From the IMG/VR virus record IMGVR_UViG_2648501839_000008: a stretch of DNA of 64,000 bases. One strand, given 5' to 3'. The notes under the pieces were generated by a model. It saw only the letters and a program-made list of their open reading frames with translations, was not told the origin of the DNA and made no database searches. Shown one piece after another: positions 1,885 to 35,560 of this stretch (positions within the stretch are counted from its first letter, which is position 1; each line of letters opens with the position of its first letter). Both the position numbers and the translations under genes were made by a program. The DNA comes from a virus (lineage: Duplodnaviria > Heunggongvirae > Uroviricota > Caudoviricetes).

Positions 1885-1939
1885 CCTGCTTCCGTATATT
1901 TAATAAGTTACTTATTATTTATATATATACAGAAACAGG
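1885..1939. repeat. 55-bp AT-rich palindrome, copy 1 (near-identical to 35506-35560)
   Basis: cctgcttccgtatatttaataagttacttattatttatatatatacagaaacagg; outer arms CCTGCTTC/GAAGCAGG-like, directly 3' of the KAP NTPase gene. Confidence 0.7.
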
Positions 1940-1949
1940 TCATGAATAC

Positions 1950-3644
1950 TTAATTATTAAGCAATCTGCTCACACGTAGTTTGTTAAGACTTGATCTAGA
2001 GGCCAGTTTCGTTAATGCACCTATTGCTTTATTCGTGATTTTTTGCTGTTCTTCTGTTAGTTCTTGCATACTTTTGAATCTGAGCAACCCCTTTCTCACT
2101 AAATCCAAAGCATCCTGATTGCGGGATAGTATCCACTTTAAATAATCATCTTCAGAGAAACTGTTAAGATATGCTATGTCACTATGATTAAATTTGCCTT
2201 CAATTATTTTGTATAAAACATTCTCTAAATTAGTCTCTTCAGGCTTCTTATCCATCAATTTTTTTTGAATTAGCAGACCTAACTTTTCGTTACCAAATAT
2301 CTCTACATACAAATTCCGAAAAGCAGTATAAGCATCATCTTGGCTAACAAAGGCATCTGCATATGCCTCTATATAACTATCACAATCAATCTCCAATCTA
2401 TTTAAGATATCAATCAAGCCTATGAAGTGAGCAACAGGTATGTGTGAAAGATTGTCGTTAATTACACATTTTATCTTAGAAATAAACTCAGATTCATTGT
2501 CCTTGAATGAGTCACTAAAAATATCCCAAACATTGTTAACATCACATAAAGCCTTGTGTTCTTTATATTGTTTATTTTTTTCTTCTATTATACCTCGAAT
2601 ATTGCTTTCAGTAGAAAGATAACCATTCTTGAGATAAAAATCTATGTCATCATCGAAAGCAATTTCCGCTCGTTCATAAATAACATCAAGACTATTAATA
2701 AATGAATATACAGAATCATCCTTTTTATCATCTAACATGTAATCAAATACATGTATGTTTTTAATTGATTCTTTAAACAAGGCATAATCAACACCTGGAA
2801 CACCAGAATAGTAAACCACTGAAAACAGAACCAATCTATTGATAAAACTTTCTCTAACCTTATCCTCTGCCAAGCTTAGCTCATTCCTAAGATTAACCAG
2901 AGATGTTTTTATTTTATTTAATATACGGATATTTTTAATGCCTAAGTCATTTGCTAAGACTTTTAACAAAAGAAAATCAGAATCAGTTTCATAAAAAACT
3001 TTACGTAAGTTCTTCTCAGGCGTAGGATCGTATTTTATTTCGACATCAATTACTTTTTCTCTGTACTCTAAAAACTGTTTTTTTGCAGTTTCATCATGTA
3101 AATTATCTTCATTTAAAATTAGAACAACTTTGCAACCTTTTCTTCTTGCTAATTCATCAATTACCCCCATAATTTCTTTAACTTCTAGCGAATTACCTTT
3201 TCTTTCAACATCATCAATACAAACCAAATAATTATTAACAAATTTATACTCAAGAGATGACAGCAGGTTATCTGTTTTGAACCCAAAAAAATCGTTCTTT
3301 CCGAAATGTATTAAAAATTTTGACAAGGAGTTGTATTTCAACCATCCCCAAAACCCATTTCTATAACGAATCATAGTTCGATCCGTTTCAGATAAAATTA
3401 GTTCTTTATATTTCTTTTCATTAATTGGTGTGGCACAATGATAAAGAGCTTTTTTAATATCACCAATAGAGTTAACCCCAAACAAAGAAACATACGAATA
3501 TGCATTAAAATCTAATCCTTCAGAATGCTTAGTATAAAAACTATTCCAATAATGAGTTTTACCAACGCCCCAATCTCCTTTTATGACGGCAACCCGATGA
3601 TCTGAAACTAGAAAATTTTTTAGAAATGATTCTATCGATTCCAT
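1950..3644 (-). CDS. KAP-family P-loop NTPase (candidate defence or abortive-infection protein), AT-rich cargo gene
   Basis: N-terminal Walker A VIKGDWGVGKTH, Walker B-like LVCIDDVERKG about 140 aa later, long helical C-terminal region; AT-rich codon usage unlike neighbours; probable ATG at 3644 with AAAGGA RBS (track start 3653 is TTG). Confidence 0.55.
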   Translation of the reverse strand: MESIESFLKNFLVSDHRVAVIKGDWGVGKTHYWNSFYTKHSEGLDFNAYSYVSLFGVNSIGDIKKALYHCATPINEKKYKELILSETDRTMIRYRNGFWGWLKYNSLSKFLIHFGKNDFFGFKTDNLLSSLEYKFVNNYLVCIDDVERKGNSLEVKEIMGVIDELARRKGCKVVLILNEDNLHDETAKKQFLEYREKVIDVEIKYDPTPEKNLRKVFYETDSDFLLLKVLANDLGIKNIRILNKIKTSLVNLRNELSLAEDKVRESFINRLVLFSVVYYSGVPGVDYALFKESIKNIHVFDYMLDDKKDDSVYSFINSLDVIYERAEIAFDDDIDFYLKNGYLSTESNIRGIIEEKNKQYKEHKALCDVNNVWDIFSDSFKDNESEFISKIKCVINDNLSHIPVAHFIGLIDILNRLEIDCDSYIEAYADAFVSQDDAYTAFRNLYVEIFGNEKLGLLIQKKLMDKKPEETNLENVLYKIIEGKFNHSDIAYLNSFSEDDYLKWILSRNQDALDLVRKGLLRFKSMQELTEEQQKITNKAIGALTKLASRSSLNKLRVSRLLNN

Positions 3645-3695
3645 TAGTATCAATCCTTTAATTCATATATTGGGCGTAACAAACGCCCAATATAA

Positions 3696-4055
3696 TCAAC
3701 CTTTCTTCATCAACTCTCGTTTAATTTCATCGGTACGCATCGTAACGTCGGCAGCTGTGATCGCCTCGTTAAGCTTCACGATGTCCTCGATTTCCTGCGG
3801 TGACTTCTCTGCCAGATGGAAAATGGCTGCTCGAATCACGTCAGAACGAGTGAACTTCTCGAAGCGAGGGATGAACTTCATCATCTCCAGCAGTTCGAAG
3901 TATTCGTCTTCCAGTGACATTGTGCGGCTTTTAATTTTCTCTTTGCCACGAGTCGGGCGTCCCTGTGGTCTGACTGGTTGGCGCAAAGGAGTTGTGTTCT
4001 TAGCCGGTGCATCAGGCTCTTTGCGCTTTGCTAGGTCACCCATTTTCATGGACAT
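3696..4055 (-). CDS. ParG-like ribbon-helix-helix partition protein
   Basis: 119 aa, basic disordered N-terminus plus C-terminal RHH-like segment; start overlaps parA stop (TAATG coupling). Confidence 0.45.
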   Translation of the reverse strand: MSMKMGDLAKRKEPDAPAKNTTPLRQPVRPQGRPTRGKEKIKSRTMSLEDEYFELLEMMKFIPRFEKFTRSDVIRAAIFHLAEKSPQEIEDIVKLNEAITAADVTMRTDEIKRELMKKG

Positions 4056-4723
4056 TATTCTTCTTCCTCCAGACTCAACAGATAATCTACAAATTCTTCA
4101 AACTCGGCTTCAGCCTTTTTGTCGCGCTCGCTACCGGTCATTTCGAAGATAGAACGACCAGACTCTTCCGCATCATCGTAGACGTTGCGGTTATATAGAT
4201 TGACTGGCGCAGACTCGATGCCAAACGTCTCGACAATCTCTTTAGCCGCCAGAATGCGAGACACTTGTGATGGCAAAGCCGGGCACTGGTTCATGACCGC
4301 GCGGACCTTCACTTTATCGTTTACATTACGAACATTGTCGATAATAGGATCGATGTCACGCAGAGATTTCAAATCACGACGCTTAGGACGAAGCGGGATA
4401 ATGATAACGTCGGCCATCAGCATCGCTTGTCGCTGAATTTCGGAGTCAAAGCCACCAGCATCTACCACTACAAACTCAGCTCTACCCTGAAGCGATTTTA
4501 GGTGCTTAATGATGTCATCCTGGACGTATGCAAAAGGAATCAGCTCAAGGTCTTCGTTCTGTCGACGGTCTTCACACCAGCTCGTTGTCGTGCGCTGAAT
4601 ATCTATATCGGTAATATAAACCTTCTTCTTCTTTTTGACTTTCAGGCAAACGGCAATTTGCTGGGCAACGGTGGATTTGCCAGGCCCGCCCTTTGTGCCG
4701 CCAACCACAAAGATCTTGGTCAT
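4055..4723 (-). CDS. parA: ParA/MinD-family partition ATPase
   Basis: Deviant Walker A GGTKGGPGKST at the N-terminus; 222 aa, small type-Ib ParA size; RBS AAGGGA. Confidence 0.7.
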   Translation of the reverse strand: MTKIFVVGGTKGGPGKSTVAQQIAVCLKVKKKKKVYITDIDIQRTTTSWCEDRRQNEDLELIPFAYVQDDIIKHLKSLQGRAEFVVVDAGGFDSEIQRQAMLMADVIIIPLRPKRRDLKSLRDIDPIIDNVRNVNDKVKVRAVMNQCPALPSQVSRILAAKEIVETFGIESAPVNLYNRNVYDDAEESGRSIFEMTGSERDKKAEAEFEEFVDYLLSLEEEE

Positions 4724-4742
4724 TAGAGAGTTCCCTTTGCGT

Positions 4743-4774
4743 ATATAATTATCGTCTGAAACAACTTGTTTTCT
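4743..4774 (-). promoter_or_regulatory. Class-A palindromic site upstream of parA
   Basis: tataattatcg + gaaacaacttgttttct. Confidence 0.5.
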
Positions 4775-4871
4775 TATATGTGATATAGCCTAAATGCCTA
4801 CGGCTGCGGTGTAAAGGTTAAATGGTAGGTGCTGCCTTAGAATTTTTAGGCGAGAATCAATGGCTGTTAAC

Positions 4872-4893
4872 AAAAAAGGCGACCGAAGTCGCC
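4872..4893 (-). terminator. Rho-independent terminator (minus strand)
   Basis: GGCGACTTCGGTCGCC stem followed by TTTTTT on the minus strand, just 3' of the gene ending at 4900. Confidence 0.6.
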
Positions 4894-4899
4894 TAATTG

Positions 4900-5652
4900 T
4901 TAATCTTTTAGATATAAACCAACTGGGGTTCTTGTTTTGCGGGAGATGATAAGTACGATAAATTTCTCAACGTTAACTTGCACCTTATTTGGAAACCAAG
5001 AGCTTAATTCTGGATCAAGTAACAATCCTCTGTTCCACGGCAAAAAGCCGGTTTCTTTTCCCATCCCATATTCGCCTAACACATCCTCGAACGTCTCAGT
5101 TTTTGCGTTGTAAATTCTTACATCACCTGTTCGCATTAATGGACCGGCCCAGATTTTTGCGCCAGGAATGGTCTGATTGTAATCACAGACAAGATGTTCG
5201 TACCAATGAAGGAGGAAGCGATACGTGAGGTTGCACAGTCCCCTTTGCCTTATTGCTCTTTCTGTCTCAACACCTGCAATCTGATAGCAGTCAATCTCTA
5301 CCCCATCCTCGATGAATGTGTATTCACGCAATGCAATTCTGCCTGCTATCGTGTTTCTGCTCTGATCGAGCATGTCGGAACGCAGAATTGCTTGAATAAT
5401 GTCCGAATCAGACATTCCATCTTCGCCTCTGTCCAGAATGAAGTCCATCAGTTCACCCTGATCTCGTGCTCCAACTTTCTCCATCAGGATATACAGACAG
5501 ATATCATCATCAGGCTCGATAATGGTTATTTCGGATATTTTGAAAAGCGATGCTTCGTTGATGAGGTAGCCAAAACGTGAAACGCGAGTTTCCCCACGGT
5601 GAGGAAACTCATAAAGATTTTTAGAGTATGTGCGTTCTAGTGTAGGTGCCAT
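4900..5652 (-). CDS. Hypothetical protein (250 aa)
   Basis: ORF track; ATG at 5650-5652; overlaps the upstream gene by 16 nt (coupled pair). Confidence 0.4.
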   Translation of the reverse strand: MAPTLERTYSKNLYEFPHRGETRVSRFGYLINEASLFKISEITIIEPDDDICLYILMEKVGARDQGELMDFILDRGEDGMSDSDIIQAILRSDMLDQSRNTIAGRIALREYTFIEDGVEIDCYQIAGVETERAIRQRGLCNLTYRFLLHWYEHLVCDYNQTIPGAKIWAGPLMRTGDVRIYNAKTETFEDVLGEYGMGKETGFLPWNRGLLLDPELSSWFPNKVQVNVEKFIVLIISRKTRTPVGLYLKD

Positions 5653-6020
5653 CTTAGAGCAGTACCATCAGCAGTTGTATTGCTGACAATGCTACCATGA
5701 GTATTAAGAAAGCGGCGAATTGCACTCTCAATAATTTCAGAGAATTGGTCACTAAACCGTGCTAATTCAGGGTATTGTTTTGCTGGCTTCACAATGAAAC
5801 GAACACGATCGTTCAGGAAAATCGCTTCAGCCAACGGTTTTACACTGGCACCAGCATTCTCAACATCGTCTTTGAAAGTTACGATGAAGCGAGTGTCTTT
5901 TGGCGCAGTCGCATCGTTGTTAAGTTTACGCACCTCAAGTTTGCGCTTATTCAGCACATGAGTTGCGATAACACTCGTGCAATCGCGAATTGTTTGTATA
6001 GAACGTTTTTCGTTCAGCAT
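5637..6020 (-). CDS. Hypothetical protein (127 aa)
   Basis: ORF track; ATG at 6018-6020. Confidence 0.4.
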   Translation of the reverse strand: MLNEKRSIQTIRDCTSVIATHVLNKRKLEVRKLNNDATAPKDTRFIVTFKDDVENAGASVKPLAEAIFLNDRVRFIVKPAKQYPELARFSDQFSEIIESAIRRFLNTHGSIVSNTTADGTALRWHLH

Positions 6021-6197
6021 GTGTCCACCTTAGCCGGTATTAACTTAATGTCATAGCGGCGACCCTTGTCAGGGTTTAGAGGCTACGAGTATGCGTCGCA
6101 GCATTAATGCAAGGGATGATTTACTTGACATCCATGTGCCAAATCTACCTTGTGCTCTAATAATATGCAAATTTTATGTTAGAAAACTCCTCTTCTG

Positions 6198-6428
6198 TTA
6201 TGGTACTTTTCTGCCCCATCCACACAATCGCTCCCCTATCATATTGTGAAAAAGTACCTCTCTTTCAGTCTCTTCGGTCATGAGATCATCACGGCTGATG
6301 TATAGCGGTGTAGCCGCATCGCAGAAAAGCACACCAGCGGGTTGAGGCTTAATCACGCAACCACTTATTGTGCAACTCATGATGAACAGTAGAAGCATCC
6401 TTGCTCCGTAACTCATCAAGTGTTTCAT
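6198..6428 (-). CDS. o-spanin (Rz1-like outer-membrane lipoprotein), overlapped with the i-spanin gene
   Basis: Alternative frame across the Rz-like gene; signal peptide with lipobox ...FIMSCTISGC; start placed at internal Met (track ORF is 6198-6506). Confidence 0.4.
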   Translation of the reverse strand: MKHLMSYGARMLLLFIMSCTISGCVIKPQPAGVLFCDAATPLYISRDDLMTEETEREVLFHNMIGERLCGWGRKVP

Positions 6429-6600
6429 TTTTGACGTCCAATGTGCTTTGAAGTCGTTTCCTGTCTTCCTGTTTTGCCTTCTCTTCCATTGCTCGTCGCG
6501 CCGCATTTCCGCCCATCGTGTAAGCGCCGACCAGAACGAAAAGAACGGCAGCCAGCGTAATCAAAGCAACTTTTAGCTTTGTCATCAGGCTGCCTAGCAT
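6349..6600 (-). CDS. i-spanin (Rz-like)
   Basis: N-terminal TM segment (LKVALITLAAVLFVLVGAY) followed by a charged coiled-coil region; contains the Rz1-like ORF in another frame. Confidence 0.5.
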   Translation of the reverse strand: MLGSLMTKLKVALITLAAVLFVLVGAYTMGGNAARRAMEEKAKQEDRKRLQSTLDVKNETLDELRSKDASTVHHELHNKWLRD

Positions 6601-6601
6601 A

Positions 6602-7321
6602 TTAGACCATCCCTTTCTGGTGTCTTCTTACCTGCGACCAGGCAATGAATCCGGCCACAACAATAGTGGCAATGCCGAAGATGATGCGTACTGTATCCCC
6701 GCTAGAGATATGACCTTGTGCCTTATCCATAGCAGCGGAAACCTGCGGCATAACATCGGCCAGCTGCGCCAGACCAATACCTGCTGTAACAGTTGCGCCT
6801 GCAGTTTCTTTAGTTACAGGAACAGCCTTCACGGTTTTCACCGGCTTAACGACGCCAGCTCGACGCAGACCTTCCTCAATAACTTCTGCCGCATACCAGG
6901 TGTTCAGCGTTTTTAGCGGACCTCGCCCATTCTCATGGCGAATGATTGCCTCAACCAAAGGTCGAAGAATGTCGTAATCATGCAGATCGATGATCATGTC
7001 TGCGGTTACACCAACGGCTTTAGACACCTCATTAATGTAGGCGTCAGTGTTGTTTTCATTCGGCGGTGCCCAACGTTCAATAACTTCACGAATGGTATCG
7101 ATACTTGAGCCGTCTTTTGCGCGACGTTTGTCGTGGTAGGTAATTAGAGTCACCGCCAGCGCACGAATCCCCCAAACAGGGTCTTTAAACGTGCAAAAGC
7201 GCGGTTCGTCTGGATTCGCAATCAGACCTTGCCACGGTGATCCTTTATCAAGATTACCGGGGTTATTATTACGAATGCCTCTCGGAGTCTTCATCCTTGA
7301 TCTCCTGTTATTGCAGTCCAT
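6602..7321 (-). CDS. Putative lysis protein / peptidoglycan hydrolase candidate with C-terminal membrane anchor
   Basis: Lies between the holin-like and spanin genes; conserved-looking RNNNPGNL motif; C-terminal hydrophobic segment IIFGIATIVVAGFIAW; family not recognised. Confidence 0.35.
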   Translation of the reverse strand: MDCNNRRSRMKTPRGIRNNNPGNLDKGSPWQGLIANPDEPRFCTFKDPVWGIRALAVTLITYHDKRRAKDGSSIDTIREVIERWAPPNENNTDAYINEVSKAVGVTADMIIDLHDYDILRPLVEAIIRHENGRGPLKTLNTWYAAEVIEEGLRRAGVVKPVKTVKAVPVTKETAGATVTAGIGLAQLADVMPQVSAAMDKAQGHISSGDTVRIIFGIATIVVAGFIAWSQVRRHQKGMV

Positions 7322-7643
7322 TTTTTACGCCATACGCGGCTAACCCCAAAAGCAGTGCAGTAATAATGAACGACGTTATTTTAGAAACAATGCCGCCAAA
7401 GAACCCACTGGAGATGGAATCTAACCGGTTAAGGAGTTTGTCCAGGTTGGAGTGTTGAATACTATGTTGCGCCGGGGTCATATCACCAAAGTAGGTTTTC
7501 AGCTGATCATTGACCTCCTGGCCAATTTCTTCACGTAGCTCTTTACCTAATTTGCCAACAACCTCCCGAGCAACGATCGCGGCAATACGCTCAACTTGCT
7601 CTGTTGTAACGCCCGCCATCTCGTTCGACATGTTTTCCTCCAT
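7308..7643 (-). CDS. Small membrane protein (holin candidate)
   Basis: 111 aa with a single C-terminal TM segment; first gene of the putative lysis cassette. Confidence 0.3.
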   Translation of the reverse strand: MEENMSNEMAGVTTEQVERIAAIVAREVVGKLGKELREEIGQEVNDQLKTYFGDMTPAQHSIQHSNLDKLLNRLDSISSGFFGGIVSKITSFIITALLLGLAAYGVKNGLQ

Positions 7644-7693
7644 GAAAAGTCAAATCGGGATGGCGGATTTATATCACATTTCACCTTCTTGTT

Positions 7694-7714
7694 GTAGGTG
7701 TGTACTTACTTATC
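7694..7714 (-). promoter_or_regulatory. Class-B palindromic site
   Basis: gtaggtgtgtacttacttatc about 50 nt upstream of the gene starting at 7643. Confidence 0.45.
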
Positions 7715-7943
7715 ATTCAACATTGCAACGGACTGATGAGAAAGCACCTACTCCAACCCATCGCCAGTTATAGATGCTACCCGCTTTGTATAAGGTATAG
7801 TCGTTCACTTTTTTAACAGCATATATGGGTATGACTGTCTCCTGTCCACCAATGATAGCCTCACCATAACATATGGGTGTCGGCAATTTCTGACAGCCAG
7901 TAAGAGAGAGAACAACAGCTATTGTTAGAAATAATCTTTTCAT
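7713..7943 (-). CDS. Small lipoprotein (Cor-like superinfection-exclusion candidate)
   Basis: Signal peptide plus lipobox LSLTGC, 76 aa, located just after the tail fiber genes. Confidence 0.4.
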   Translation of the reverse strand: MKRLFLTIAVVLSLTGCQKLPTPICYGEAIIGGQETVIPIYAVKKVNDYTLYKAGSIYNWRWVGVGAFSSVRCNVE

Positions 7944-7953
7944 CGTTTACTCA

Positions 7954-8562
7954 TCAGTTATACAGATTTCTATTTATTACCGGTACTCTGCCATTTACGC
8001 TAAAACTATGGCCGCCATTAAGTTGGTTTACGAATATGGAACTAACAGTATTTCCATATGCCGCATATCCATAAACCATTGTCATGGCCCCGCCCGGTAC
8101 TGGAACCGCGAACACATTTGCATATGTTGGGATTATCGCTGGCGGGTAATCAAAAACATGCCCTCCAGAACTGTTCCACTCCGTATTATTAAGAAAGGTA
8201 AATGAAAGTGGGATATTTGCCGTATTATAGATCTCCTCTCCTCGCGCATTGAAAAAACTCATGCCCCAAGTTTCTTTTTTGGCTATACCTTTCGAAAATA
8301 CGTATATCGTGGCACTAGAGTCGCTACCCTGACCTCCGAAACTGTAAATCACCTGGTTGTTACGCACTATTCTGTTGGCTATTAATGAAACAGCTTTCGA
8401 ATAGGCAACAAAAATCATCGGTGAACGATCTGGAGATATTTGGGTGTTAAACTCTGTCCCGCCAGACAAAGAAACAACCTGCTTTCTCTGAAAAACGATA
8501 GGAGACAAAGAAGGAGACATCCAGACCTTCCCGTCAGATCGATATATCTTGCTTCCGTACAT
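7954..8562 (-). CDS. Hypothetical protein (202 aa), tail-fiber associated
   Basis: ORF track; start overlaps the upstream stop (TAATG). Confidence 0.35.
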   Translation of the reverse strand: MYGSKIYRSDGKVWMSPSLSPIVFQRKQVVSLSGGTEFNTQISPDRSPMIFVAYSKAVSLIANRIVRNNQVIYSFGGQGSDSSATIYVFSKGIAKKETWGMSFFNARGEEIYNTANIPLSFTFLNNTEWNSSGGHVFDYPPAIIPTYANVFAVPVPGGAMTMVYGYAAYGNTVSSIFVNQLNGGHSFSVNGRVPVINRNLYN

Positions 8563-8816
8563 TATTTTTGAAAAACCAATATGTTTAAATTGCCACTAGC
8601 TCCAGACCATGAAATGGTATTTCCAGAAACCGTAAGACTTGTGTATTTCCCATTGGTTACGTCCATTATGTAATAGTCGATTCCCAATCCCGCCTCAACC
8701 TCATATGTTCTACTTCCAGAACCAGAGGGAGTAAAATAATCGAGGTAATAAACAGGGGCCAACGCATCGACCATCTCCTGTCTTGATGGCGACCATACCT
8801 GTGCACCATAGCTCAT
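8562..8816 (-). CDS. Hypothetical protein (84 aa)
   Basis: ORF track; coupled to the downstream gene. Confidence 0.35.
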   Translation of the reverse strand: MSYGAQVWSPSRQEMVDALAPVYYLDYFTPSGSGSRTYEVEAGLGIDYYIMDVTNGKYTSLTVSGNTISWSGASGNLNILVFQK

Positions 8817-8876
8817 AAATATATCCTTATACTTTTAAGCAGGGGCTGGTTTAGTTCCAGCCCCGATTGAAGTTGT

Positions 8877-13017: not shown

Positions 13018-13061
13018 GTTGAATATGCTCCTTGATTTGGTGGGCTATCCTTGCCCACCAT

Positions 13062-26473: not shown

Positions 26474-26493
26474 TAGTAAGTATATACTTACTA
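26474..26493 (-). promoter_or_regulatory. Class-B palindromic site
   Basis: tagtaagtatatacttacta upstream of the major tail protein gene. Confidence 0.45.
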
Positions 26494-26499
26494 ATTGAG

Positions 26500-26856: not shown

Positions 26857-26884
26857 CAAACTTGCAAACGCTTCAATAAACACA

Positions 26885-27358
26885 TTAACCTCTCGTAAAT
26901 CCGGCTTTTCTGGCAGCCTCAAGAATCGCTTCTGAGAACTGCTTCTCGCTAATTTCCACCGCTCTTTCCAGAAAGTGTGGCCCAACACGGGGTTTAACAC
27001 CGGCAATTGGTGGGTTTGTCACGTTCTTCATTCGAGAAAGATAACCGAGTCGGTATTTACCCAGCTCCATGTACTTAGCATAGTCACCTACTTCTACGCC
27101 CGGATGCCCCTGACGTGGTTTTGCTCCAGACACAGAAAGCTCAATACGCAGCCCTGAATAACCTTCTTTAATCACCCTGGCAAAGATGGCTGTCTCCAGA
27201 GATCCGGTTTCCAGCGGGGCCATTGCACGGCTGAGACGCTCAACCAAACGCGCCAGCTTTTCCATGTCCCGAATAAGATATCGCTTAAATGCTTTCTGGC
27301 TGTTGTTGAGTCTATTCCCCGCACGTTTGAACTGATGCGCATCGTATTTCAGACCCAT
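26885..27358 (-). CDS. Tail completion / HK97 gp10-like candidate
   Basis: Gene order and size (157 aa). Confidence 0.4.
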   Translation of the reverse strand: MGLKYDAHQFKRAGNRLNNSQKAFKRYLIRDMEKLARLVERLSRAMAPLETGSLETAIFARVIKEGYSGLRIELSVSGAKPRQGHPGVEVGDYAKYMELGKYRLGYLSRMKNVTNPPIAGVKPRVGPHFLERAVEISEKQFSEAILEAARKAGFTRG

Positions 27359-27693
27359 ATATTCGCCCCTACTTCAAGATGCCCAGGTCTTCCTCGTAGC
27401 CCCCAGCGGCGATGAACACTGGACACCTTTAATTTTTGACCTTCAAGGATCAGTACATCATCAAGTTGTACAGCCGCTTCCAAAGGGACAACTAACACAG
27501 CATCAAACAGCTCCAGACTCGCCTTACCACGACTACCAGAGCTATCAGCACGAACTGACGATTTCTCATTACTCTGTTCGAACTTAACCACGCCGACATT
27601 CGTCTTCCTGACGAATTGTAATTGCGCCTCACCGTAAACGTTCTTTGCGCCAAAGCGGTAGATCGCAATTTCTGTTTGCCATGAAATATTCAT
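27349..27693 (-). CDS. Head-tail adaptor candidate
   Basis: Gene order; start trimmed to an internal ATG. Confidence 0.35.
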   Translation of the reverse strand: MNISWQTEIAIYRFGAKNVYGEAQLQFVRKTNVGVVKFEQSNEKSSVRADSSGSRGKASLELFDAVLVVPLEAAVQLDDVLILEGQKLKVSSVHRRWGLRGRPGHLEVGANIWV

Positions 27694-27772
27694 GCTCTCT
27701 CCCTGTTGTTGTCGGTCGCTCTCATTACTGGCCAAAAACCCTTTAGACCAAAAGTAAATAATGCGACTGGCG

Positions 27773-28606
27773 TTACGCACGGCGAACAATCATACGGTTG
27801 TTGATGTAACTGACCAGCAAGCGCCAGGTACTACGAGCCACATGCACGTTTGCAGCTTTACCGGTACGGTACATGTTGGTTGTTTCACCGATGGACTCTG
27901 ACAAAATGCCATCCTCTCGTGCTGCGGCTACATCATTGCCATTTGCGATCTCACACGCTTCGTTGACAACGGCAAGCATCAACGCTTCTTTGAAGTAGTC
28001 AGGGAACTCTTCAAACTTCTCCTGCGTCATCTTTTCCCAATCGACTAAATCATGCCGGTACGCTCCATCTGCTCCCCACGGAATGTCATACACATTCAGC
28101 ATATTTTGAGGGCGATCGTATCGGTCAAAGTCGATACGTAGAATTTTGCGGATTGAGAACGGTAAAGTTTTAATTCGTCTGGTAGCCTCAATGAGACGCT
28201 TGCGCATTAAGCCTTCACCATCCGACAGCAAAGTGTCCCCATTCAGCATATCGATCGCCTGCATTTGAGCATCAGCGACAGTTGCAAACGACTGTTCTGG
28301 TATCGACAGTTCAAAACTATTCAGCAGAACATACATTTGCCGCTCTTCATGCGTCAGACCCGATGCAACAGCCTTCACAATGACGTACCGCAGATCTCGC
28401 TCTTTCACAGAGAGCTGGTTATATTCAGCCGACACGACAACCGGAATCGACATTTGACCGCTGGTAATTTCTAGCGGCTCGCCATCAACGAGAATAGCCC
28501 CGGTGCTGTCCTTTACTGTGTAGGTGGCAGATTCGATATCCAGCACGTTGAAGGCAAATGAAAGAGAAACAGCTTCACCGCTACGATACGAGTCGATCTG
28601 CGCCAT
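27773..28606 (-). CDS. Hypothetical structural protein (277 aa)
   Basis: ORF track; lies within the head-tail joining block. Confidence 0.4.
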   Translation of the reverse strand: MAQIDSYRSGEAVSLSFAFNVLDIESATYTVKDSTGAILVDGEPLEITSGQMSIPVVVSAEYNQLSVKERDLRYVIVKAVASGLTHEERQMYVLLNSFELSIPEQSFATVADAQMQAIDMLNGDTLLSDGEGLMRKRLIEATRRIKTLPFSIRKILRIDFDRYDRPQNMLNVYDIPWGADGAYRHDLVDWEKMTQEKFEEFPDYFKEALMLAVVNEACEIANGNDVAAAREDGILSESIGETTNMYRTGKAANVHVARSTWRLLVSYINNRMIVRRA

Positions 28607-29040
28607 TACTCACCGCCTTGTGCTTTCAGGATGCCGTCAATCATTTCGACAATTCCTTTCGCTTTGACACCAACCTGATTACCAATAACTCGTAGACCGG
28701 CAATACCTTCGTTGTCTGCAATTGACTCCAGCTCTTCTCGTGTGAAAGTCTGGATCTGTTTGGCCGGTTCATCTGGTGTCCCACGTTTCATTGGCACAAT
28801 GTCAGGCGCTGCTGGCTCGGTAATCAGGTCTGCTGTCAATTCACCACGATCACTGTATGCGGCAGACGGAGAAACATTTTTGCCCTCTACTGTTGACGCT
28901 CGCATTGAAGCACAAATCCTCTGCTGATCGATAAAAGGCAACTCCGCTACGGATACCCCGTTCTCGAACTGAACGCCACACAGCATTCCCGAATAACCGG
29001 AAAATTGCGGTTCTAATAAAACAATTTTTGCTGGTTTCAT
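28606..29040 (-). CDS. Hypothetical structural protein (144 aa)
   Basis: ORF track; coupled to the downstream gene. Confidence 0.4.
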   Translation of the reverse strand: MKPAKIVLLEPQFSGYSGMLCGVQFENGVSVAELPFIDQQRICASMRASTVEGKNVSPSAAYSDRGELTADLITEPAAPDIVPMKRGTPDEPAKQIQTFTREELESIADNEGIAGLRVIGNQVGVKAKGIVEMIDGILKAQGGE

Positions 29041-29084
29041 AACGCTTTCTCTCCACTTGGGCGGCGAAAGCCGCCCAATATCGG

Positions 29085-30005
29085 TTATTCCTGTGCGGCA
29101 GTAACTTCTACAGTTGCTGTCGCTTTGTGGCTACCATCTTGGGTAGTAACCTCGATTGTGGCAGTACCAGCCGCAACACCAGTTACAACACCGGTTTCGC
29201 TGTCAACCGTTGCAAACTCGGTATTTTTGGATTCCCAAGTAACGGTTTTATTTGTGGCTCCTGCCGGCTCGACATTTGCTGTCAGCTGAACAGTTTTGTT
29301 TGCCTCAACGGTTGTGCTATTTGGGTCGATTTCGACGCCGGTAACAGCCACAACAGGCGCAGTTACTTCCACCGTTGCAGTTGCCTTTTTGCTGCCATCT
29401 TGGGAAACGATCTCAATCGTCGCAGTGCCAACTTCTACACCAGTAACGTTCCCGCTCTGGTCTACCGTTGCCTTATCTTCATTTTTGGAAGACCAGGTAA
29501 CAGCCTTATTCGTCGCATTTGACGGCTGAACATTCGCTTTCAGACTGACTGATTTCCCTTTCTCAACAGACGTTGATTCTGGCGTTACCGTTACGGATTG
29601 AACGGCTACCGGATTTACGGTGACTTCCACTGAAGCGGAAAGCTGGGTTTCCTGATCAGTTGCAGTAATTTTTACTTTGCCTGGTGCTACGCCAGTTACT
29701 AATCCAGTGCCGTTAACGGTTGCAATTTGGTCATTGGCTGACTTCCAGGTGAATGAACTGGCACTCTTACCCATACTAATACCTGCACTAAGTTGAACAG
29801 TTTTCCCAACCAAAACTGACGGTGAAGCCGGGGTTATGTTTACGGATTGGGAGAGGGGAACCGCCTGCAAACAAGCAGATAGCTGACTTTGTTGCCGCTC
29901 GGTTAAAGGTTCATCGGAGATAGAATTGGTAAATCCGGCACGGCACATATGCCCCGTAAAATCCGAAAATGCCTCTTCCGTAATCTTCATCTTTTGTTCT
30001 GGCAT
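29085..30005 (-). CDS. Ig-like (Big_2) repeat protein, head decoration/fiber candidate
   Basis: Three tandem Ig-like repeats (...VTPESTSVEKGKSVSLKANVQPSNATNKAVTWSSKNEDKATVD...); directly follows the capsid gene. Confidence 0.55.
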   Translation of the reverse strand: MPEQKMKITEEAFSDFTGHMCRAGFTNSISDEPLTERQQSQLSACLQAVPLSQSVNITPASPSVLVGKTVQLSAGISMGKSASSFTWKSANDQIATVNGTGLVTGVAPGKVKITATDQETQLSASVEVTVNPVAVQSVTVTPESTSVEKGKSVSLKANVQPSNATNKAVTWSSKNEDKATVDQSGNVTGVEVGTATIEIVSQDGSKKATATVEVTAPVVAVTGVEIDPNSTTVEANKTVQLTANVEPAGATNKTVTWESKNTEFATVDSETGVVTGVAAGTATIEVTTQDGSHKATATVEVTAAQE

Positions 30006-30016
30006 TTCTCGCTCCT

Positions 30017-30044
30017 ACAAAAAGGGTGGGCGTATAGCCCACCC
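30017..30044 (-). terminator. Rho-independent terminator/attenuator between capsid and decoration genes
   Basis: GGGTGGGC...GCCCACCC stem followed by TTTTTGT on the minus strand, about 15 nt before the downstream RBS. Confidence 0.55.
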
Positions 30045-30053
30045 TTTAACATA

Positions 30054-30070
30054 GATAACTACTTATCTAC
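30054..30070 (-). promoter_or_regulatory. Class-B palindromic site
   Basis: gataactacttatctac. Confidence 0.4.
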
Positions 30071-30078
30071 TGCACTGA

Positions 30079-30954
30079 TTAAATTTTTACATTGGTCAGT
30101 GCAGCGATAGCCTTATCGTGCTTATTCGCCAGAGAGCAGTACCACTTCACACGGGTACGTACTGCGTCTTTGTTCTGTACAGTACCAATGTTTTCAACAA
30201 CGATACCTGCGTTATCGCCGCCATACAGACCAGTAACGCCGTTCTCTTCTGACAGATGCAAGCAGTAGATGCTTGCTTTGCCAGAATCAGTCGGGATGAA
30301 GTCGTTGATGATGAACGGAACGCCGTTATGACACAGCATCGGACGACCGAAGTTCTCCATCATGATTTCAGACGGACCTACGTTTACTGTACGCAGCAGC
30401 GCACGGTAAGCACGAAGGTGCTCTGAACGCATCATGATGCAGTCAGCACCAAGATCTTTCACCGCATCGACCAGTTCGTCGAACATAGAGAAAGTCATAG
30501 ATGCACCGGCGATATCGATCTTCTGATCTGCGTGCATCAGGCGTGGAATGCCGTCAAACGCTTTGTTGTTGGTGCTGGAGTCACCCAAAATCAGATTGCG
30601 ACGGAACGCACGAGCCAGACCTTTAACTTTCTGACGAACCTGAATAGCCAACTGGTTATTGGTGTCGGCCATAGTGGTTGCCAGGAATTTATCAACGTCT
30701 ACGTCACCAGCCAGAATACGCAGTTTCGCAACGCATTCTTCGAAGGTTGCTGCACCTTCCGGGATGGTGTCGTTAACGTCGATGAAGGTAGCTTCACTCA
30801 GCGTTTTTTCACGGTTGTACAGATATGCCTTTGAAGTAATTTTCATAAAAGGCAGGATGGCAAACAGGTCATCGCGATCGATGATGGTTTCAATCACGCC
30901 CTGTTCAAGTTCGTTGTTAGACAGCTTTTCAGCTTCTTCACGCAGTAATGGCAT
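30079..30954 (-). CDS. Major capsid protein candidate
   Basis: 291 aa, located after portal and scaffold, followed by a terminator/attenuator typical of highly expressed capsid genes. Confidence 0.55.
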   Translation of the reverse strand: MPLLREEAEKLSNNELEQGVIETIIDRDDLFAILPFMKITSKAYLYNREKTLSEATFIDVNDTIPEGAATFEECVAKLRILAGDVDVDKFLATTMADTNNQLAIQVRQKVKGLARAFRRNLILGDSSTNNKAFDGIPRLMHADQKIDIAGASMTFSMFDELVDAVKDLGADCIMMRSEHLRAYRALLRTVNVGPSEIMMENFGRPMLCHNGVPFIINDFIPTDSGKASIYCLHLSEENGVTGLYGGDNAGIVVENIGTVQNKDAVRTRVKWYCSLANKHDKAIAALTNVKI

Positions 30955-30979
30955 CTATCAATTCCCTTTGATTTAGATG

Positions 30980-31867
30980 TTACTTAAGTCCAATTTTCCC
31001 CAGACCGGAGGCCAACTTATCCATAGTCGACTTGTTCTTCGGTTGGGATATTGTGTAGGTCGATTTGGAATGTGAGCCTACACCCTGCTTGGCTTCGCTA
31101 CGCATCAATGCGTCAGCTTCCGGATCTGCCCGCACAATGCGTTCAATCGCGGATTCAAACGGCAACGGCTTACCTTCACCGTCAACCAGAACAGCTCGTT
31201 CTTTATGACCTGCCGGTTTGTCATAACCCACTACGCTACCGTCTTCACCCACTTCAAAATGAGAACCGTAGATCACGCGGGCTTTTGCCGGAGTCATCAG
31301 AACTTTGTCACGTAGGAAGAGAGAGTTACTGAAGGAAGCGCCCACGGTCATCTCGACTAATTGAGATTTCAGTGATGCGTTTTCACTTTCCAGTGCTGCA
31401 TAACGTTCGTCACGCTGTGCCAGCTCTGCCTGGTGTGCTTCGATCATCTGTTTTTTAACAGCATCGAACTCACCACGACGCTCCAGTTCAGCTTGCTCCG
31501 CCTCACGACGTGCGTTTTCTGCGGCCTGTTCAGCTTCTAAAAGCTGGCGAGCACGCGCCGGGTCGATTTCACCGTACTGAGCAAGCTGATCGGCCAATGT
31601 GCGCTCTTTCTCTTTGCGCTTCATGTTCTCTTTCAGCAGTTCAGCACCAGCTTTCTTGGTTTTGCGAAGTTCGGCCAGTAACTCTTCATGAGTCATGCCA
31701 GCGTATTCGTCATCACCCTTCGGCTGCTCTTTTTGTTCACCCTGCTTGTCAGGATCTTGTGTACTCTGCTCATTATCAGCAGCTACACCGCCAGCGCCCC
31801 CACGCTCATGCGCTTCAGCAACATCCATCAGACCACGACGGGCCAAAAGCATTTGCCACAGTTTCAT
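30980..31867 (-). CDS. Scaffolding protein candidate
   Basis: Glu/Ala/Arg-rich coiled-coil protein between portal and capsid. Confidence 0.55.
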   Translation of the reverse strand: MKLWQMLLARRGLMDVAEAHERGGAGGVAADNEQSTQDPDKQGEQKEQPKGDDEYAGMTHEELLAELRKTKKAGAELLKENMKRKEKERTLADQLAQYGEIDPARARQLLEAEQAAENARREAEQAELERRGEFDAVKKQMIEAHQAELAQRDERYAALESENASLKSQLVEMTVGASFSNSLFLRDKVLMTPAKARVIYGSHFEVGEDGSVVGYDKPAGHKERAVLVDGEGKPLPFESAIERIVRADPEADALMRSEAKQGVGSHSKSTYTISQPKNKSTMDKLASGLGKIGLK

Positions 31868-31888
31868 AAAAATTCCCTTTGTTACTTA

Positions 31889-33463
31889 TCACTCGTTCTC
31901 TTGAGTAGATGAGTCCCCATTCCCTCGGGGTTGATCTTGCCCGCTTTCTTGGGCTGCACCACGATCATAAGTAAGTACTGACTTATTTTCAAGGGTATTT
32001 AGATCATTTTTTGGCGGAAAATTCAAGAGATCTTTATCAAATTCCTTTTTCATCGCCTCAGTAATGTTCGGGAAAATCTTCTCAATAAGCATTTCCATCT
32101 GGTGACGACGTACAGAGTCCGGTGCCTGAAGTAATGACAGTTTCTCGGCAACAGAAAATTCATCTGTAAGGCCACGAATATCGAAACTTTCTGGATACGC
32201 AATTAAAGAGTGGTCTTCGTCCAGATCTACCCCCATCCATTTCGCAACCAGTAGCATGATTTGGCGTTCAGCCCTTTCCAGACGCTCTGCTTTTGTGACA
32301 AGCAAGCTATTTACACGCTGGAAGTCATACATTTTTGCGGCACCAGATGAGTTATCAATTCCCTGTGCGTTGTCCTGCTTCGTTCGCTCACCAGCGACAC
32401 CAACTGAATGGTAGATTTCGTTAATCACCGTCTTAATCGTAGTGATGATCATCTGAGCTTGTTTCGGGTCTGGTGACAAATAAAACGGCTGGTTTCCACC
32501 TTCAGAATCGTAGGTGAAGACTCGCTTTGTGCCCATTTCAAGCACTTTAGTGTGGTTTTCATCACCAGGTAAAAGCGACTGTACCGGTATAGCCAACTGG
32601 CTAAATGTCTGATCCTGAATAATGGCATCAAGGTTTGACAGATAGTTTGCAACCGCACGATCAAGATAAGCGATATCATCGATCAACGATGGGCTGAAAT
32701 ACGGTGATTCACTTTCTCCAATACAATCAACAGGAAACACAGGAACTACGCCGAGATTATGCTCACCGCTATCCTCTAAAATAACTTTTGCCTGACGGCG
32801 ACCTGCTCCACCAGCGCCCTTCTTCACTTCCTCACGGAACAGATACCACTCGTTTTGTGTCCACAGACGATAACGTTGGTATTCCTGACCTGTAGAAGTA
32901 AAAGGATCTGCGTCATCACGAGCGACTTCCACAATTAACGCCCACAACATATTCCCGTCGTCGTCCCATGCCACATCCAGCATTTGCTGAGGTGAAATCC
33001 AGTAGGCGTAGGCGCGAGCATCTTTCTTTTTCTCGTCAGCTACTGACTCAACATCACCACTCATCGTGCTATCGACAACAACCCATATGCGACCGTAAAT
33101 AGACGACTGCAAATCAATAGCGGCCATAAATGAGTCAATAGAGGCATTCTGGCGAGTCGCACGTTTCCAGAAATTGCGGATCTGCTCTGGTGCCTCTTCG
33201 ATATTTCTATGAATGTCTTCTTTAAAGAGATATTTGTTGATGAGGTTTACCACCTCACGAGTGTGGTTGAAGCGATAAGCACGCTCAACTCGCTCCTTAA
33301 ACTCCTGATCTCCCTCTTTAAAGTAACGAAAGATATTGTCTGTAAACCAACCACGCCCGCCAGCGTAAGTGCTGGCGAGGAAGTCCCAATGTTCTTTTTT
33401 CTTTTCGTATTCCGGGTGGCGTCGCGCCACCAGATCCTTAATTTGTTTGTCGTTCAATTCCAT
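31889..33463 (-). CDS. Portal protein
   Basis: 524 aa, immediately downstream of TerL; size and position typical. Confidence 0.7.
   Translation of the reverse strand: MELNDKQIKDLVARRHPEYEKKKEHWDFLASTYAGGRGWFTDNIFRYFKEGDQEFKERVERAYRFNHTREVVNLINKYLFKEDIHRNIEEAPEQIRNFWKRATRQNASIDSFMAAIDLQSSIYGRIWVVVDSTMSGDVESVADEKKKDARAYAYWISPQQMLDVAWDDDGNMLWALIVEVARDDADPFTSTGQEYQRYRLWTQNEWYLFREEVKKGAGGAGRRQAKVILEDSGEHNLGVVPVFPVDCIGESESPYFSPSLIDDIAYLDRAVANYLSNLDAIIQDQTFSQLAIPVQSLLPGDENHTKVLEMGTKRVFTYDSEGGNQPFYLSPDPKQAQMIITTIKTVINEIYHSVGVAGERTKQDNAQGIDNSSGAAKMYDFQRVNSLLVTKAERLERAERQIMLLVAKWMGVDLDEDHSLIAYPESFDIRGLTDEFSVAEKLSLLQAPDSVRRHQMEMLIEKIFPNITEAMKKEFDKDLLNFPPKNDLNTLENKSVLTYDRGAAQESGQDQPRGNGDSSTQENE
31966..31989 (-). 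promoter_or_regulatory. Class-B palindromic site (inside the portal 3' end)
   Basis: cataagtaagtactgacttatttt. Confidence 0.4.
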
Positions 33464-33475
33464 TTGAATAACCTT

Positions 33476-33497
33476 AGATAATTACTTACCTATCTAG
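33476..33497 (-). promoter_or_regulatory. Class-B palindromic site (overlaps the TerL stop / portal RBS)
   Basis: agataattacttacctatctag. Confidence 0.4.
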
Positions 33498-34746
33498 AAC
33501 CACCAAGAATAACACGGTTTTTGACTGGATACCTACGATGTACTGGATAGCCCAATGCGTCTGCACTATGCTCAATGCCACCTGTCTTATCCATATCTCG
33601 TGTTCCAGGCTTGTAGATGACTTTTTCCAGTGAATCAATCAAATGCTTGCACTTCGGATCGATATACAACCGGATATCTCCAGATGCGGTCATCAGCATT
33701 CGGTTAACAGCATTAACACGATCCGCAATTGGCGGGTGCTTTTTCGAATAATCGACACGTAAGAATCCCTTCTCTTTGAATATGTCGACGTCAGACTCCC
33801 CGCGAGCATGTTGGCGATAAGCACCTGCCGGATCTGGAAATACCGTTATCTGTGATTTCCAGCGCCAGAAGCGTCTCTCAAGCTCATCACAAACCTCTGC
33901 CGTGTTAGAGGAAAAGAGCACCAATTCATCAATTGCCCATAGCTCACCATTTGGCTGAGGTTGCAAAATTACTGAAGACATCGGGTCAATGTTGAAGTCC
34001 TGCCCTACCCATATAGGCAACCGAGGGTTGAACTGAAGCGGTTTTACATGCACGTTACGATCGAACGGGTAGTAAACGCGCCCGGACATGTTCTCAAAGC
34101 TCGCCAGGTACTCCTGAGCGAACGATTTCGGGTCCATATCGTTCTTAGCAGCTTCAATTTCCGCCGTAGGCACAAACGGAGAATCGGCAGTTACAAACTG
34201 CCAGCTCTTCCACTGTCCCTTTCTTTGCAGCTCTACGTTCTGGCCTATAGTCCACAGTTTGTGAAATTCCGAGAAACCTTTTGGCGTACCAATGATAAGT
34301 GCACCGCCGCGTGTCGATGAAAGAGTAGGTCGTAACACCTTGTACCAGGTGTCAGCCTTCATATCCTGAAATTCATCAAGCACTACAAAATGCAACGCTA
34401 CGCCGCGCAGAGTGTCAGGCTTATCAGCACCTTTGAGGGCGATCTCCGAACCGTTCTTCAACACGATTGTCATCGTGGTGTCGTTCTTTTTCCTAACCCA
34501 CTTACGAGGCAGAACTTCCTGTAGATCGTCCCACAAAATCTGGCGAGCCATCTGGTAAGTAGGAGCGACATACCAGACCCTTTGCTTTTTTTCCTTTGCC
34601 GCCGCACGAATAATAGTGGAGATCGACAACCGGGATTTTCCCCAGCGTCGACCAGCACAAACAACTTTAAATCGATGCGGAGACTGGAAGACTTTCATCT
34701 GTCCAGAATGCAGTTGCACAAGACTGAGCGAGGACGGGATTGCCAT
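33490..34746 (-). CDS. Terminase large subunit
   Basis: Walker A-like CAGRRWGKS, Walker B VVLDEF, C-terminal nuclease-like half; 418 aa. Confidence 0.85.
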   Translation of the reverse strand: MAIPSSLSLVQLHSGQMKVFQSPHRFKVVCAGRRWGKSRLSISTIIRAAAKEKKQRVWYVAPTYQMARQILWDDLQEVLPRKWVRKKNDTTMTIVLKNGSEIALKGADKPDTLRGVALHFVVLDEFQDMKADTWYKVLRPTLSSTRGGALIIGTPKGFSEFHKLWTIGQNVELQRKGQWKSWQFVTADSPFVPTAEIEAAKNDMDPKSFAQEYLASFENMSGRVYYPFDRNVHVKPLQFNPRLPIWVGQDFNIDPMSSVILQPQPNGELWAIDELVLFSSNTAEVCDELERRFWRWKSQITVFPDPAGAYRQHARGESDVDIFKEKGFLRVDYSKKHPPIADRVNAVNRMLMTASGDIRLYIDPKCKHLIDSLEKVIYKPGTRDMDKTGGIEHSADALGYPVHRRYPVKNRVILGGSR

Positions 34747-35378
34747 TATTCGTCCTCCCCTTCACTTCCATCATCTGTCGCATCAAATTCGCTTAGAGCT
34801 TCTTCTTCCAACGTCTCAAGCAATTCGTCATCGATGATTTCAGGCTCGTCGTCTTCCTGACGTAATTTCGCCACCTGGGAAGGCGTAAGCTCACCAAATA
34901 CCAGGTTCGGAATTTCTTCCTCGTCATTTTCCGCATGATCCATGCCCAATGCTTTGGACGAAACTTCAAAGCATTTTGCAAGGGTATTACTGGCTCTCTG
35001 TAAGCTCTTGAGAGAATCCTCAATCGCCCCTAAAGGCTTACCCTCACGTTTGGCCGTAGTGACTTCGACCATCACCATCTGCCCCAACGCATACGCCCAG
35101 CCGTCATAACGTGTACGACGTTCTTCTATCTTTTCCGCACGGGCTTTAGCGCGAAGCTCTGCGTCAGATTTAAGAGACTCACGAACCATCTTCCCAACAG
35201 AGTCCGCGCCTTTCTCTAATCCTCGCTTTTTGAAATGTCTGGAGAGTGTTTCACGACGAATGCCGTACTCTTCCTCCAGCTTTGAGAGTGTATATTCGCC
35301 TGACGTCCATTTGGCTTCAGCTTCGGCCCACTCCGCTGGTGTCAGGCGAGTTTTTACCTCGTCTTTTTCGACCGTCAT
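34746..35378 (-). CDS. Terminase small subunit candidate
   Basis: 210 aa, HTH-like N-terminus, acidic C-terminal tail; stop overlaps the TerL start. Confidence 0.55.
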   Translation of the reverse strand: MTVEKDEVKTRLTPAEWAEAEAKWTSGEYTLSKLEEEYGIRRETLSRHFKKRGLEKGADSVGKMVRESLKSDAELRAKARAEKIEERRTRYDGWAYALGQMVMVEVTTAKREGKPLGAIEDSLKSLQRASNTLAKCFEVSSKALGMDHAENDEEEIPNLVFGELTPSQVAKLRQEDDEPEIIDDELLETLEEEALSEFDATDDGSEGEDE

Positions 35379-35417
35379 AGATCCCTCTAAAACACACAGA
35401 GCGCGTCCATGCGCTCT

Positions 35418-35475
35418 AAAACAACTTGTTTACTGCATTTTCTAACCAACTTGTTTTCTGGGTTGTTTAATTAGG
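35418..35475 (-). promoter_or_regulatory. Class-A palindromic sites (two) upstream of the packaging operon
   Basis: aaaacaacttgtttact and aaccaacttgttttct + ggttgtttaattagg. Confidence 0.5.
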
Positions 35476-35505
35476 TCTGGGCATGTCTTATTAAGCCTGC
35501 TTCCG

Positions 35506-35560
35506 TATATATTTAATAAGTTACTTATTATTTATATATACAGAAGCAGGTCTTTAAATA
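35506..35560. repeat. 55-bp AT-rich palindrome, copy 2
   Basis: cctgcttccgtatatatttaataagttacttattatttatatatacagaagcagg, directly 3' of the wHTH gene. Confidence 0.7.

Follow-up and report, generated by a model that had tools for sequence, protein, structure and literature searches.

Intrinsic terminators at the boundaries of phage modules and morons are hairpins with a GC-rich base that stand right after a stop codon and are followed by a U-run. In the lambda sib/tI retroregulator a terminator lies inside a longer helix whose outer part forms on read-through only, and the RNase III sites of T7 are several related intergenic hairpins in a co-directionally transcribed phage genome. REP/BIME, ERIC and Neisseria Correia elements are imperfect palindromes in transcribed intergenic regions that are able to end or stabilize mRNA; dispersed centromere palindromes (sopC-like), to be compared also with parS, occur in N15, a phage-plasmid encoding ParA and ParB-like proteins; and cos and pac sites are found next to the small terminase gene. 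Here we set beside these systems a 55-bp AT-rich palindrome that occurs twice in a 64,000-nt stretch of DNA (the window) from IMG/VR record IMGVR_UViG_2648501839_000008, an Escherichia coli SSU5-like phage-plasmid with nearly all of its genes on the minus strand, whose closest records are CMS-2020a, PhiR41_1, Cyrano (pLF82) and SSU5. Both copies belong to a family of three per genome, and we favor, with moderate confidence, the reading that this hairpin family acts mainly as RNA, ending or attenuating transcripts at boundaries between co-oriented units.

Cyrano and SSU5 carry three copies each, at equivalent places, to which the two copies of the window can be assigned.

Site i (copy 2 of the window): upstream of terS, the small terminase gene.
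Site ii (copy 1 of the window): where the cargo/ParA region gives way to the CYRAN_31-helicase operon.
Site iii (expected near 65.8 kb, beyond the window): immediately past the Dam methylase gene.

As in the terminators of module and moron boundaries, the hairpin has a GC-rich base and stands directly behind a stop codon; at sites ii and iii a U-run comes next, and at site ii the hairpin coincides with a drop in RNA and closes a moron slot. It departs from them in the length of its stem (~25 bp), in its AT-rich (TA)n top and its extra outer stem, in the recurrence of the same sequence at three sites and across genera, and in the absence of a U-run at site i. The parts of the two window copies are as follows.

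1885-1939, minus strand: palindrome core of copy 1 (site ii), sense strand CCTGTTTCTGTATATATATAAATAATAAGTAACTTATTAAATATACGGAAGCAGG, 55-mer CCTGCTTCCGTATATTTAATAAGTTACTTATTATTTATATATATACAGAAACAGG.
1874-1884, minus strand: T-rich tail of copy 1, TCTTTCAAAAG, directly 3' of the core on the sense strand.
1860-1869, minus strand: remnant of the 3' outer arm of copy 1, sense CCACCAGAAC, conserved, its 5' partner replaced by the cargo gene.
35496-35550, minus strand: palindrome core of copy 2 (site i), sense strand CCTGCTTCTGTATATATAAATAATAAGTAACTTATTAAATATATACGGAAGCAGG.
35563-35572, minus strand: 5' outer arm of copy 2, GGTCTGGGAG, starting 2 nt past the stop codon of an 88-aa open reading frame (ORF).
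35474-35482, minus strand: 3' outer arm of copy 2, sense GCCCAGACC, pairing with the 5' outer arm in 35474-35572.

The core consists of the arms CCTGCTTCYGTATAT and ATATACRGAAGCAGG around an AT-rich center of 21-27 nt, in which the length of the (TA)n tract varies. Its helix of ~24-25 bp stands on a GC-rich base, CCUGCUUC/GAAGCAGG, with 10 basal pairs (CCUGCUUCYG/CRGAAGCAGG) that are 60-70% GC, and an outer inverted repeat, GGTCTGGGAG ... CTCCCAGACC, lies ~12-26 nt away from the core. A first-pass annotation of the window had located copy 1 exactly and copy 2 with a shift of 10 nt, at 35506-35560, and it had described correctly how the 55-mers differ: copy 1 has one AT unit fewer in its left arm, one TA more in its right arm, and a single A/G change. 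The inner AATAAGTTACTTATT occurs in the window at the two palindromes only, with 0.12 matches expected by chance, and a full 55-mer match was never obtained in shuffled sequence. A covariance model of the family finds two members in the window and no more; its alignment mixed both strands of each palindrome and was not used for pair statistics. What the palindrome center has in common with the "class-B motif" described below is a common AT-rich 9-11-mer, AGTTACTTA, only.

RNA folding, which the first-pass annotation had put forward as a check, places both copies far below shuffled sequence. The sense (minus-strand) RNA of the core reaches -19.9 kcal/mol in copy 1 (z -7.2; antisense -13.1) and -27.7 kcal/mol in copy 2 (z -9.8; antisense -22.2). 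Copy 2 is embedded in a longer imperfect palindrome (35474-35572), the extended palindrome at site i measuring ~100-130 bp, and the 121 nt around it fold at -51.1 kcal/mol on the minus strand (z -9.6) and at -45.7 on the plus strand. Folded as DNA, the plus strand of copy 1 forms a hairpin of no more than -5.5 kcal/mol.

The element recurs in other genomes. PLSDB has it in 798 plasmids (Klebsiella 313, Escherichia 237, Enterobacter 91, Yersinia 62, Salmonella 49), and all IMG/VR instances recovered by the exact arm pattern map to one of the three syntenic sites; copy 1 of the window is syntenic with Cyrano 31159-31211, while a K. michiganensis plasmid, rearranged by IS26 cargo, gave no usable comparison. 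Among loci sampled by neighboring-protein anchors, independently of the palindrome pattern, the element was found at 78 of 80 site ii loci and at 74 of 76 site i loci, the exceptions being loci without upstream DNA, and most site iii loci have it as well, down to ~73% Dam identity. It occurs in 259 of 5426 complete E. coli genomes, with all 404 places on plasmids, none chromosomal and at most three per genome. Among 185,579 species-representative genomes, a degenerate two-arm pattern matched only 8 stretches (Kluyvera, Buttiauxella, Y. pestis and one metagenome-assembled genome), which come from plasmid-like Enterobacterales contigs plus the single metagenome-assembled genome. We therefore rejected a mobile repeat of the MITE, REP or ERIC kind, since few copies, plasmid-only occurrence and synteny make the element a lineage-specific fixture; unlike REP, ERIC and Correia elements, it has three copies only, in fixed syntenic positions, is never chromosomal and gives no sign of transposition.

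The placement of the element with respect to genes is equally regular. On the gene strand, sites i-iii all start 2-25 nt past a stop codon, and in each case the next start codon follows the end of the core at an almost fixed distance (~108-117 nt), with intervening sequences that are unlike one another: the Cyrano cores end at 17, 31211 and 78138 and the next start codons lie at 135, 31328 and 78247, and the window has 117 nt at both copies. An Rfam search with the copy 2 region gave sub-threshold microRNA-hairpin matches only (15-26 bits versus gathering thresholds of 70-211), and no description of the palindrome element was found in the literature on SSU5 and pHCM2. The element family thus appears undescribed in Rfam and the searchable literature, though its kind is ordinary.

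The substitution pattern indicates that pairing is under selection, mostly as RNA on the gene strand. Compensated double changes occur among unique cores at arm positions 5, 6, 8 and 9 (e.g., C-G / U·G / U-A, and T-A to G-C), and the site ii arms of the Klebsiella plasmid pJN2-26 read CCTGTTTC...GAAACAGG. Counting unique sequences, sites i and ii have 39 G·U and 4 A·C among their non-Watson-Crick pairs as read on the sense strand; A·C on the sense strand is the arrangement that gives G·U on the opposite strand. These pair counts are end-anchored, and MAFFT with RNAalifold on 110 extended sequences recovered 8 basal pairs only, because the (TA)n center misaligns. Sense RNA is more stable than antisense in both window copies and in most variants. 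In distant relatives (Dam 61-64% identical), a 79-80-bp palindrome stands at site iii with different sequences, its arms being GCCTTGCTCCCATA/TATGGGAGCAAGGC and its outer arms GCCGCAGTG/CACTGCGG. Elsewhere the form is kept or replaced in other ways: in one lineage the left arm of site iii has been overwritten by a longer Dam C-terminus and a GC-rich hairpin with T5 stands directly downstream; at site i of divergent Klebsiella plasmids, G·U pairs hold the hairpin together and T8 or T5 comes next; and in K. oxytoca a conventional terminator precedes a degenerate site ii palindrome. In the Acinetobacter baumannii plasmid pCFSAN093707 (L476, ~985-1030), upstream of terS and directly after the preceding stop codon, we also noticed a perfect palindrome of 14 bp, AATAAGCGCTTATT, ahead of a T-rich stretch; this palindrome is similar to the inner AATAAGTnACTTATT of the SSU5-type element.

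Transcription data are available for the relative Cyrano/pLF82. In the LF82 RNA-seq dataset, CYRAN_28, 29 and 30 stand at 50, 89 and 55 fragments per kilobase per million (FPKM), CYRAN_31 at 6 and the background median at 9.8 (PMC9928086); in other conditions CYRAN_30 rises up to ~2^10 and CYRAN_31 stays near the floor (PMC9928086). RNA thus falls to background across site ii, and the palindrome is the sole strong hairpin in the 193-nt gap between CYRAN_30 and CYRAN_31. The marks of an intrinsic terminator found here are the GC-rich base, the position at the 3' end of a co-oriented unit and, for site ii in the relative, the fall in transcript. A U-run follows the stem at site ii and in most site iii variants and is missing at site i, where copy 2 has CTTAATAAG; the tails of site ii in relatives are TCTTTTT or TCTTTTAAAAG (TTTTTTTA in Klebsiella pJN2-26), and those of site iii are mostly CTTTTT or CTGTTTT.

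We propose that nascent minus-strand RNA would fold into the ~25-bp hairpin with its GC-rich base, with a U-run following at sites ii and iii, and that the hairpin would end or strongly attenuate the upstream transcript and protect its 3' end. Site ii would close the ParA/cargo operon, presumably expressed in the plasmid (lysogenic) state, and would shield the lytic replication genes from ParA/cargo transcription; a gene dropped into the slot just upstream of site ii would hence be expressed and then insulated. Site i would separate the ParB-like/ATPase operon from the terminase and virion operon. We infer that the hairpin itself causes termination, and site i, without a U-run, may well work alike. 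The first-pass suggestion of strong bidirectional terminators that insulate cargo operons accordingly stands best for copy 1 (GC-rich base, TCTTTCAAAAG tail, compensatory and G·U changes in the arms, RNA drop in Cyrano) and more weakly for copy 2, and its bidirectional part finds no support: at sites i and ii it is the sense RNA that folds more stably, and no T-rich tail follows on the antisense strand.

Several observations weigh against this reading. The LF82 values are gene-level, come from a relative and not from the window genome, and may not be strand-specific; across site i RNA falls ~2-5-fold only, near background (PMC9928086), and for site iii the dataset is uninformative (PMC9928086). 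Site i has no U-run after its stem (CTTAATAAG) and yet is the most extended palindrome. Site iii shows either no strand asymmetry or the opposite one (A·C 11 versus G·U 8), and there the antisense strand is the more stable in the SSU5-type, L366 and L434 variants. Within the main clade the arm sequence is almost invariant across the three sites and several genera. Because the outer inverted repeat is situated past the T-run at which termination is presumed, its conservation is not accounted for by a plain terminator. Finally, a simple terminator scan flags none of the long hairpins, because their tops are long and interrupted and the scan needs an uninterrupted stem closing a 3-8-nt loop; the same scan also misses the GC hairpin with T5, in L361, because its stem has a 1x1 mismatch.

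Shorter hairpins of familiar form are seen as well. The window holds a conventional, bidirectional-looking terminator at 53894-53930 (TTAAAAAAGCCCAG...CTGGGCTTTTTAAA), and the genome therefore also uses ordinary short terminators. On the minus strand at 35397-35418, directly before the terS ribosome-binding site, there is a small GC-rich hairpin with a U-run (TAGAGCGCATGGACGCGCTCTG TGTGTTTTAG), which is kept in SSU5 and pJN2-26 and may attenuate the late operon; phage-plasmids of Aeromonas and Acinetobacter have analogs, GC hairpins with T6-T8, in the equivalent position.

The outer arms call for a second look at the RNA itself. RNase III needs ~20 bp of double-stranded RNA, and a two-state element like lambda sib/tI or the T7 sites could work as follows: the core hairpin terminates where a U-run is present, and on read-through the outer arms pair into a ~40-bp helix that is cut by RNase III, which would separate or destabilize the flanking messages, mainly at site i. 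The flanks show significant complementarity (z < -2) in 25 of 27 site i variants, 11 of 30 site iii variants and 3 of 39 site ii variants, being rare at site ii because the upstream flank there has been replaced by cargo. The outer arms beyond the T-run, with the -51.1 kcal/mol of the 121 nt at site i, favor such an element, as do the joint changes of outer and core arms in the distant relatives, the read-through to be expected at site i where the U-run is missing, and the 24-25-bp core helix and outer stem there, which exceed the length of duplex that the enzyme requires. Cleavage here is, however, purely predicted, outer pairing is dispensable at site ii (the window itself has lost it), and the covariation of the outer arms comes essentially from one divergent clade; the palindromes, moreover, have no sequence relation to the lambda sib or T7 sites and no Rfam match. 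We regard a two-state element as unlikely, though it deserves to be kept in mind.

The two copies are flanked by the following genes.

1950-3653, minus strand: low-GC (31%) KAP-family NTPase cargo gene (PF07693), in the slot ending at site ii.
1027-1776, minus strand: CYRAN_31 homolog, first gene of the next transcription unit, followed by helicase and primase.
35575-35841, minus strand: the 88-aa ORF, a CYRAN_123 homolog (phrog_900).
34746-35378, minus strand: gene of the small terminase (terS) / DNA-binding protein, with which the virion module opens, 117 nt past core 2.

The stop codon of the KAP NTPase gene lies 10 nt before the core of copy 1, and the N-terminal 220 aa of the protein are the only part to match the PADLOC candidate defense family PDC-S49 (E 2.8e-22). 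In the window this gene sits where Cyrano has CYRAN_30, and sequence homology with relatives ends, on the cargo side, at the core edge of copy 1. On the other side of that core, the annotated ATG of the CYRAN_31 homolog is at 1767, 117 nt past it. The conserved ParB-like/ATPase operon extends to copy 2 and has as its final gene the 88-aa ORF, which had gone uncounted in the five-gene operon of the first-pass annotation; Pfam and PHROGs gave no function for the small ORFs that flank the palindromes. The earlier description of both copies as standing 3' of cargo modules is thus right for copy 1, which follows the KAP NTPase cargo gene, and wrong for copy 2, which follows a conserved core operon.

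A hypervariable cargo slot has site ii as its fixed downstream edge. In a set of 75 loci of site ii, the upstream 400 nt sort into 14 unrelated families and the downstream 400 nt into one, whereas sites i and iii have a single flank family on either side; a search for the element beside different cargo, as had been suggested, was hence fruitful at site ii only. An outer-arm-like TCTGG motif is kept in 8 of the 14 upstream families and found in none of the other 6, among which is the window's own cargo family, where cargo abuts the core. According to a published survey, SSU5-like elements have their insertions of resistance genes clustered at a single locus (PMC9600943), and its equation with the slot at site ii is presumed only.

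These patterns could also be expected if the elements were recombination hot spots for module or cargo exchange, a role that the first-pass annotation had offered as its alternative. The 14 upstream families against one downstream, the junction at the core edge in 6 of the 14, the single insertion locus of resistance genes in SSU5-like elements (PMC9600943) and gene conversion between copies all speak for it. The three copies within a genome usually have site-specific centers (20 genomes), but sites i and ii are identical in 3 of the 20 and sites ii and iii in one genome. Copy 1 of the window is a site ii copy with a center of the site i type, and the same two sites of Cyrano are ~87% alike; the window copies are near-identical because gene conversion put a site i type center into copy 1. 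Recombination between copies is therefore seen in this form, and yet a lineage-switch test, comparing relative identity to SSU5 and to Cyrano across the palindrome, found no excess of junctions over control positions in the same loci at sites i and iii, site ii offering too few alignable loci. Nor do the two copies bracket an exchangeable module: the 33.6 kb between them is the conserved virion and lysis module, and sites i and iii have one flank family each side. The other edge of the cargo region is without a palindrome, and the site ii pattern is equally well explained by selection to keep a terminator. We consider a hot-spot function very improbable.

The neighborhood of copy 2 raises the question of whether the palindrome is a site that works as DNA, by cruciform extrusion or protein binding: a pac site next to terS, a lytic origin, or one of several N15-like dispersed partition sites. 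Copy 2 precedes terS by 117 nt, different sites and genera share the arm sequence around an AT-rich center, the three copies are spread round the circle at 0, 31 and 78 kb, site ii has a ParA gene in its vicinity and site i has ParB-like genes, and extra pac sites would be harmless to a headful packager. Furthermore, the linear records of SSU5 (L001/L002) and Cyrano (L003/L004) start and end inside the site i palindrome, the equivalent of copy 2. The IMG/VR contigs L138, L151 and L228, however, have an end inside or adjacent to one of the three copies, and contig ends of plasmid assemblies fall in all three, so that the record ends look like assembly breaks. The Cyrano record was probably re-cut to follow SSU5. 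Breakage of assemblies at an inverted repeat is most likely what record and contig ends at the elements reflect, a trap for inferring genome termini; since assemblies break at all three copies, the ends of the SSU5 and Cyrano records are uninformative on termini.

Other properties also speak against a site of this kind. The large terminase subunit (TerL) of the window matches Terminase_6N/6C, the T4-like type, and not the cos type of lambda, HK97 or P2. Cruciform extrusion or symmetric recognition of the duplex is opposed by the asymmetry of G·U versus A·C pairs and by the poor plus-strand DNA hairpin of copy 1. An ordinary terminator replaces the element in one lineage, and distant relatives have arms of other sequence. 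How far the element lies from ParA depends on the cargo, which, together with the strand asymmetry, would oppose a centromere of the parS or N15 type; the palindrome is also much longer than the 16-bp parS, and its G·U asymmetry, T-runs and replacement by a terminator point to RNA. Altogether a DNA-level site has, in our estimate, a slim chance of being the main function. Two narrower candidates were set aside. A cos site was dropped as the leading explanation in view of the three copies per genome, the T4-like TerL, the probable re-cutting of Cyrano after SSU5 and the breaks at all three copies. The ends CCTGCTTC.../...GAAGCAGG, by inspection, have no GTTRRRY as an integron attC site would, and the paper on integrons in phages reported no attC-like site in SSU5.

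A broader possibility combines several of these elements. The palindrome could be a dedicated, sequence-specific boundary device, with a terminating core in the plasmid state and an extended form, either RNA cut by RNase III or DNA recognized by a phage protein, that serves lytic processing, packaging or replication, and with copies that act as homology islands, keeping each other uniform and defining a single cargo-capture slot. We hold such a device to be improbable on present evidence, if not negligibly so, and return to termination at unit boundaries as the reading that we favor.

Two other dispersed motifs were noticed in the window, both given on the gene strand.

998-1031, 4754-4787, 35415-35459 (two copies), 44555-44588, 45995-46014, 46478-46511, 49692-49776, 62459-62492 and 63183-63211: palindromic motif AGAAAACAAnTTGTTT.
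1780-1801, 7694-7715, 33474-33495 and 38766-38787, with related copies at 13060, 19973, 31966 and 60032: "class-B" motif TGATAAGTAAGTAACTACCTAC.

The AGAAAACAAnTTGTTT motif stands just upstream of many minus-strand operons, with both copies at 35415-35459 between palindrome copy 2 and terS, and it looks like a dispersed operator or promoter element; dispersed C1 operators are known in phage P1. The class-B motif precedes start codons by ~15-35 nt, chiefly those of virion and lysis genes, and is also found before the CYRAN_31 homolog in Klebsiella relatives; its TAAgTAAgTAA provides stop codons in all three frames. Finally, the interval 47001-48000 is ORF-poor and of extreme strand composition, with a GC skew of +0.32 and an AT skew of -0.32; 55 nt are directly repeated in it, at 47628 and 47860.

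SSU5-like phage-plasmids are common in Klebsiella, E. coli, Enterobacter, Salmonella and Yersinia pestis, they carry resistance genes essentially in one locus (PMC9600943), and they carry defense genes as well. The element described here would provide a precise landmark for the annotation of cargo slots and a candidate insulator part for engineering, and it would explain why assemblies and deposited phage records break at the positions of the palindromes. If site ii closes the locus in which that cargo resides, it would also explain how cargo can be expressed in the plasmid state of these phages without switching on their lytic replication genes.

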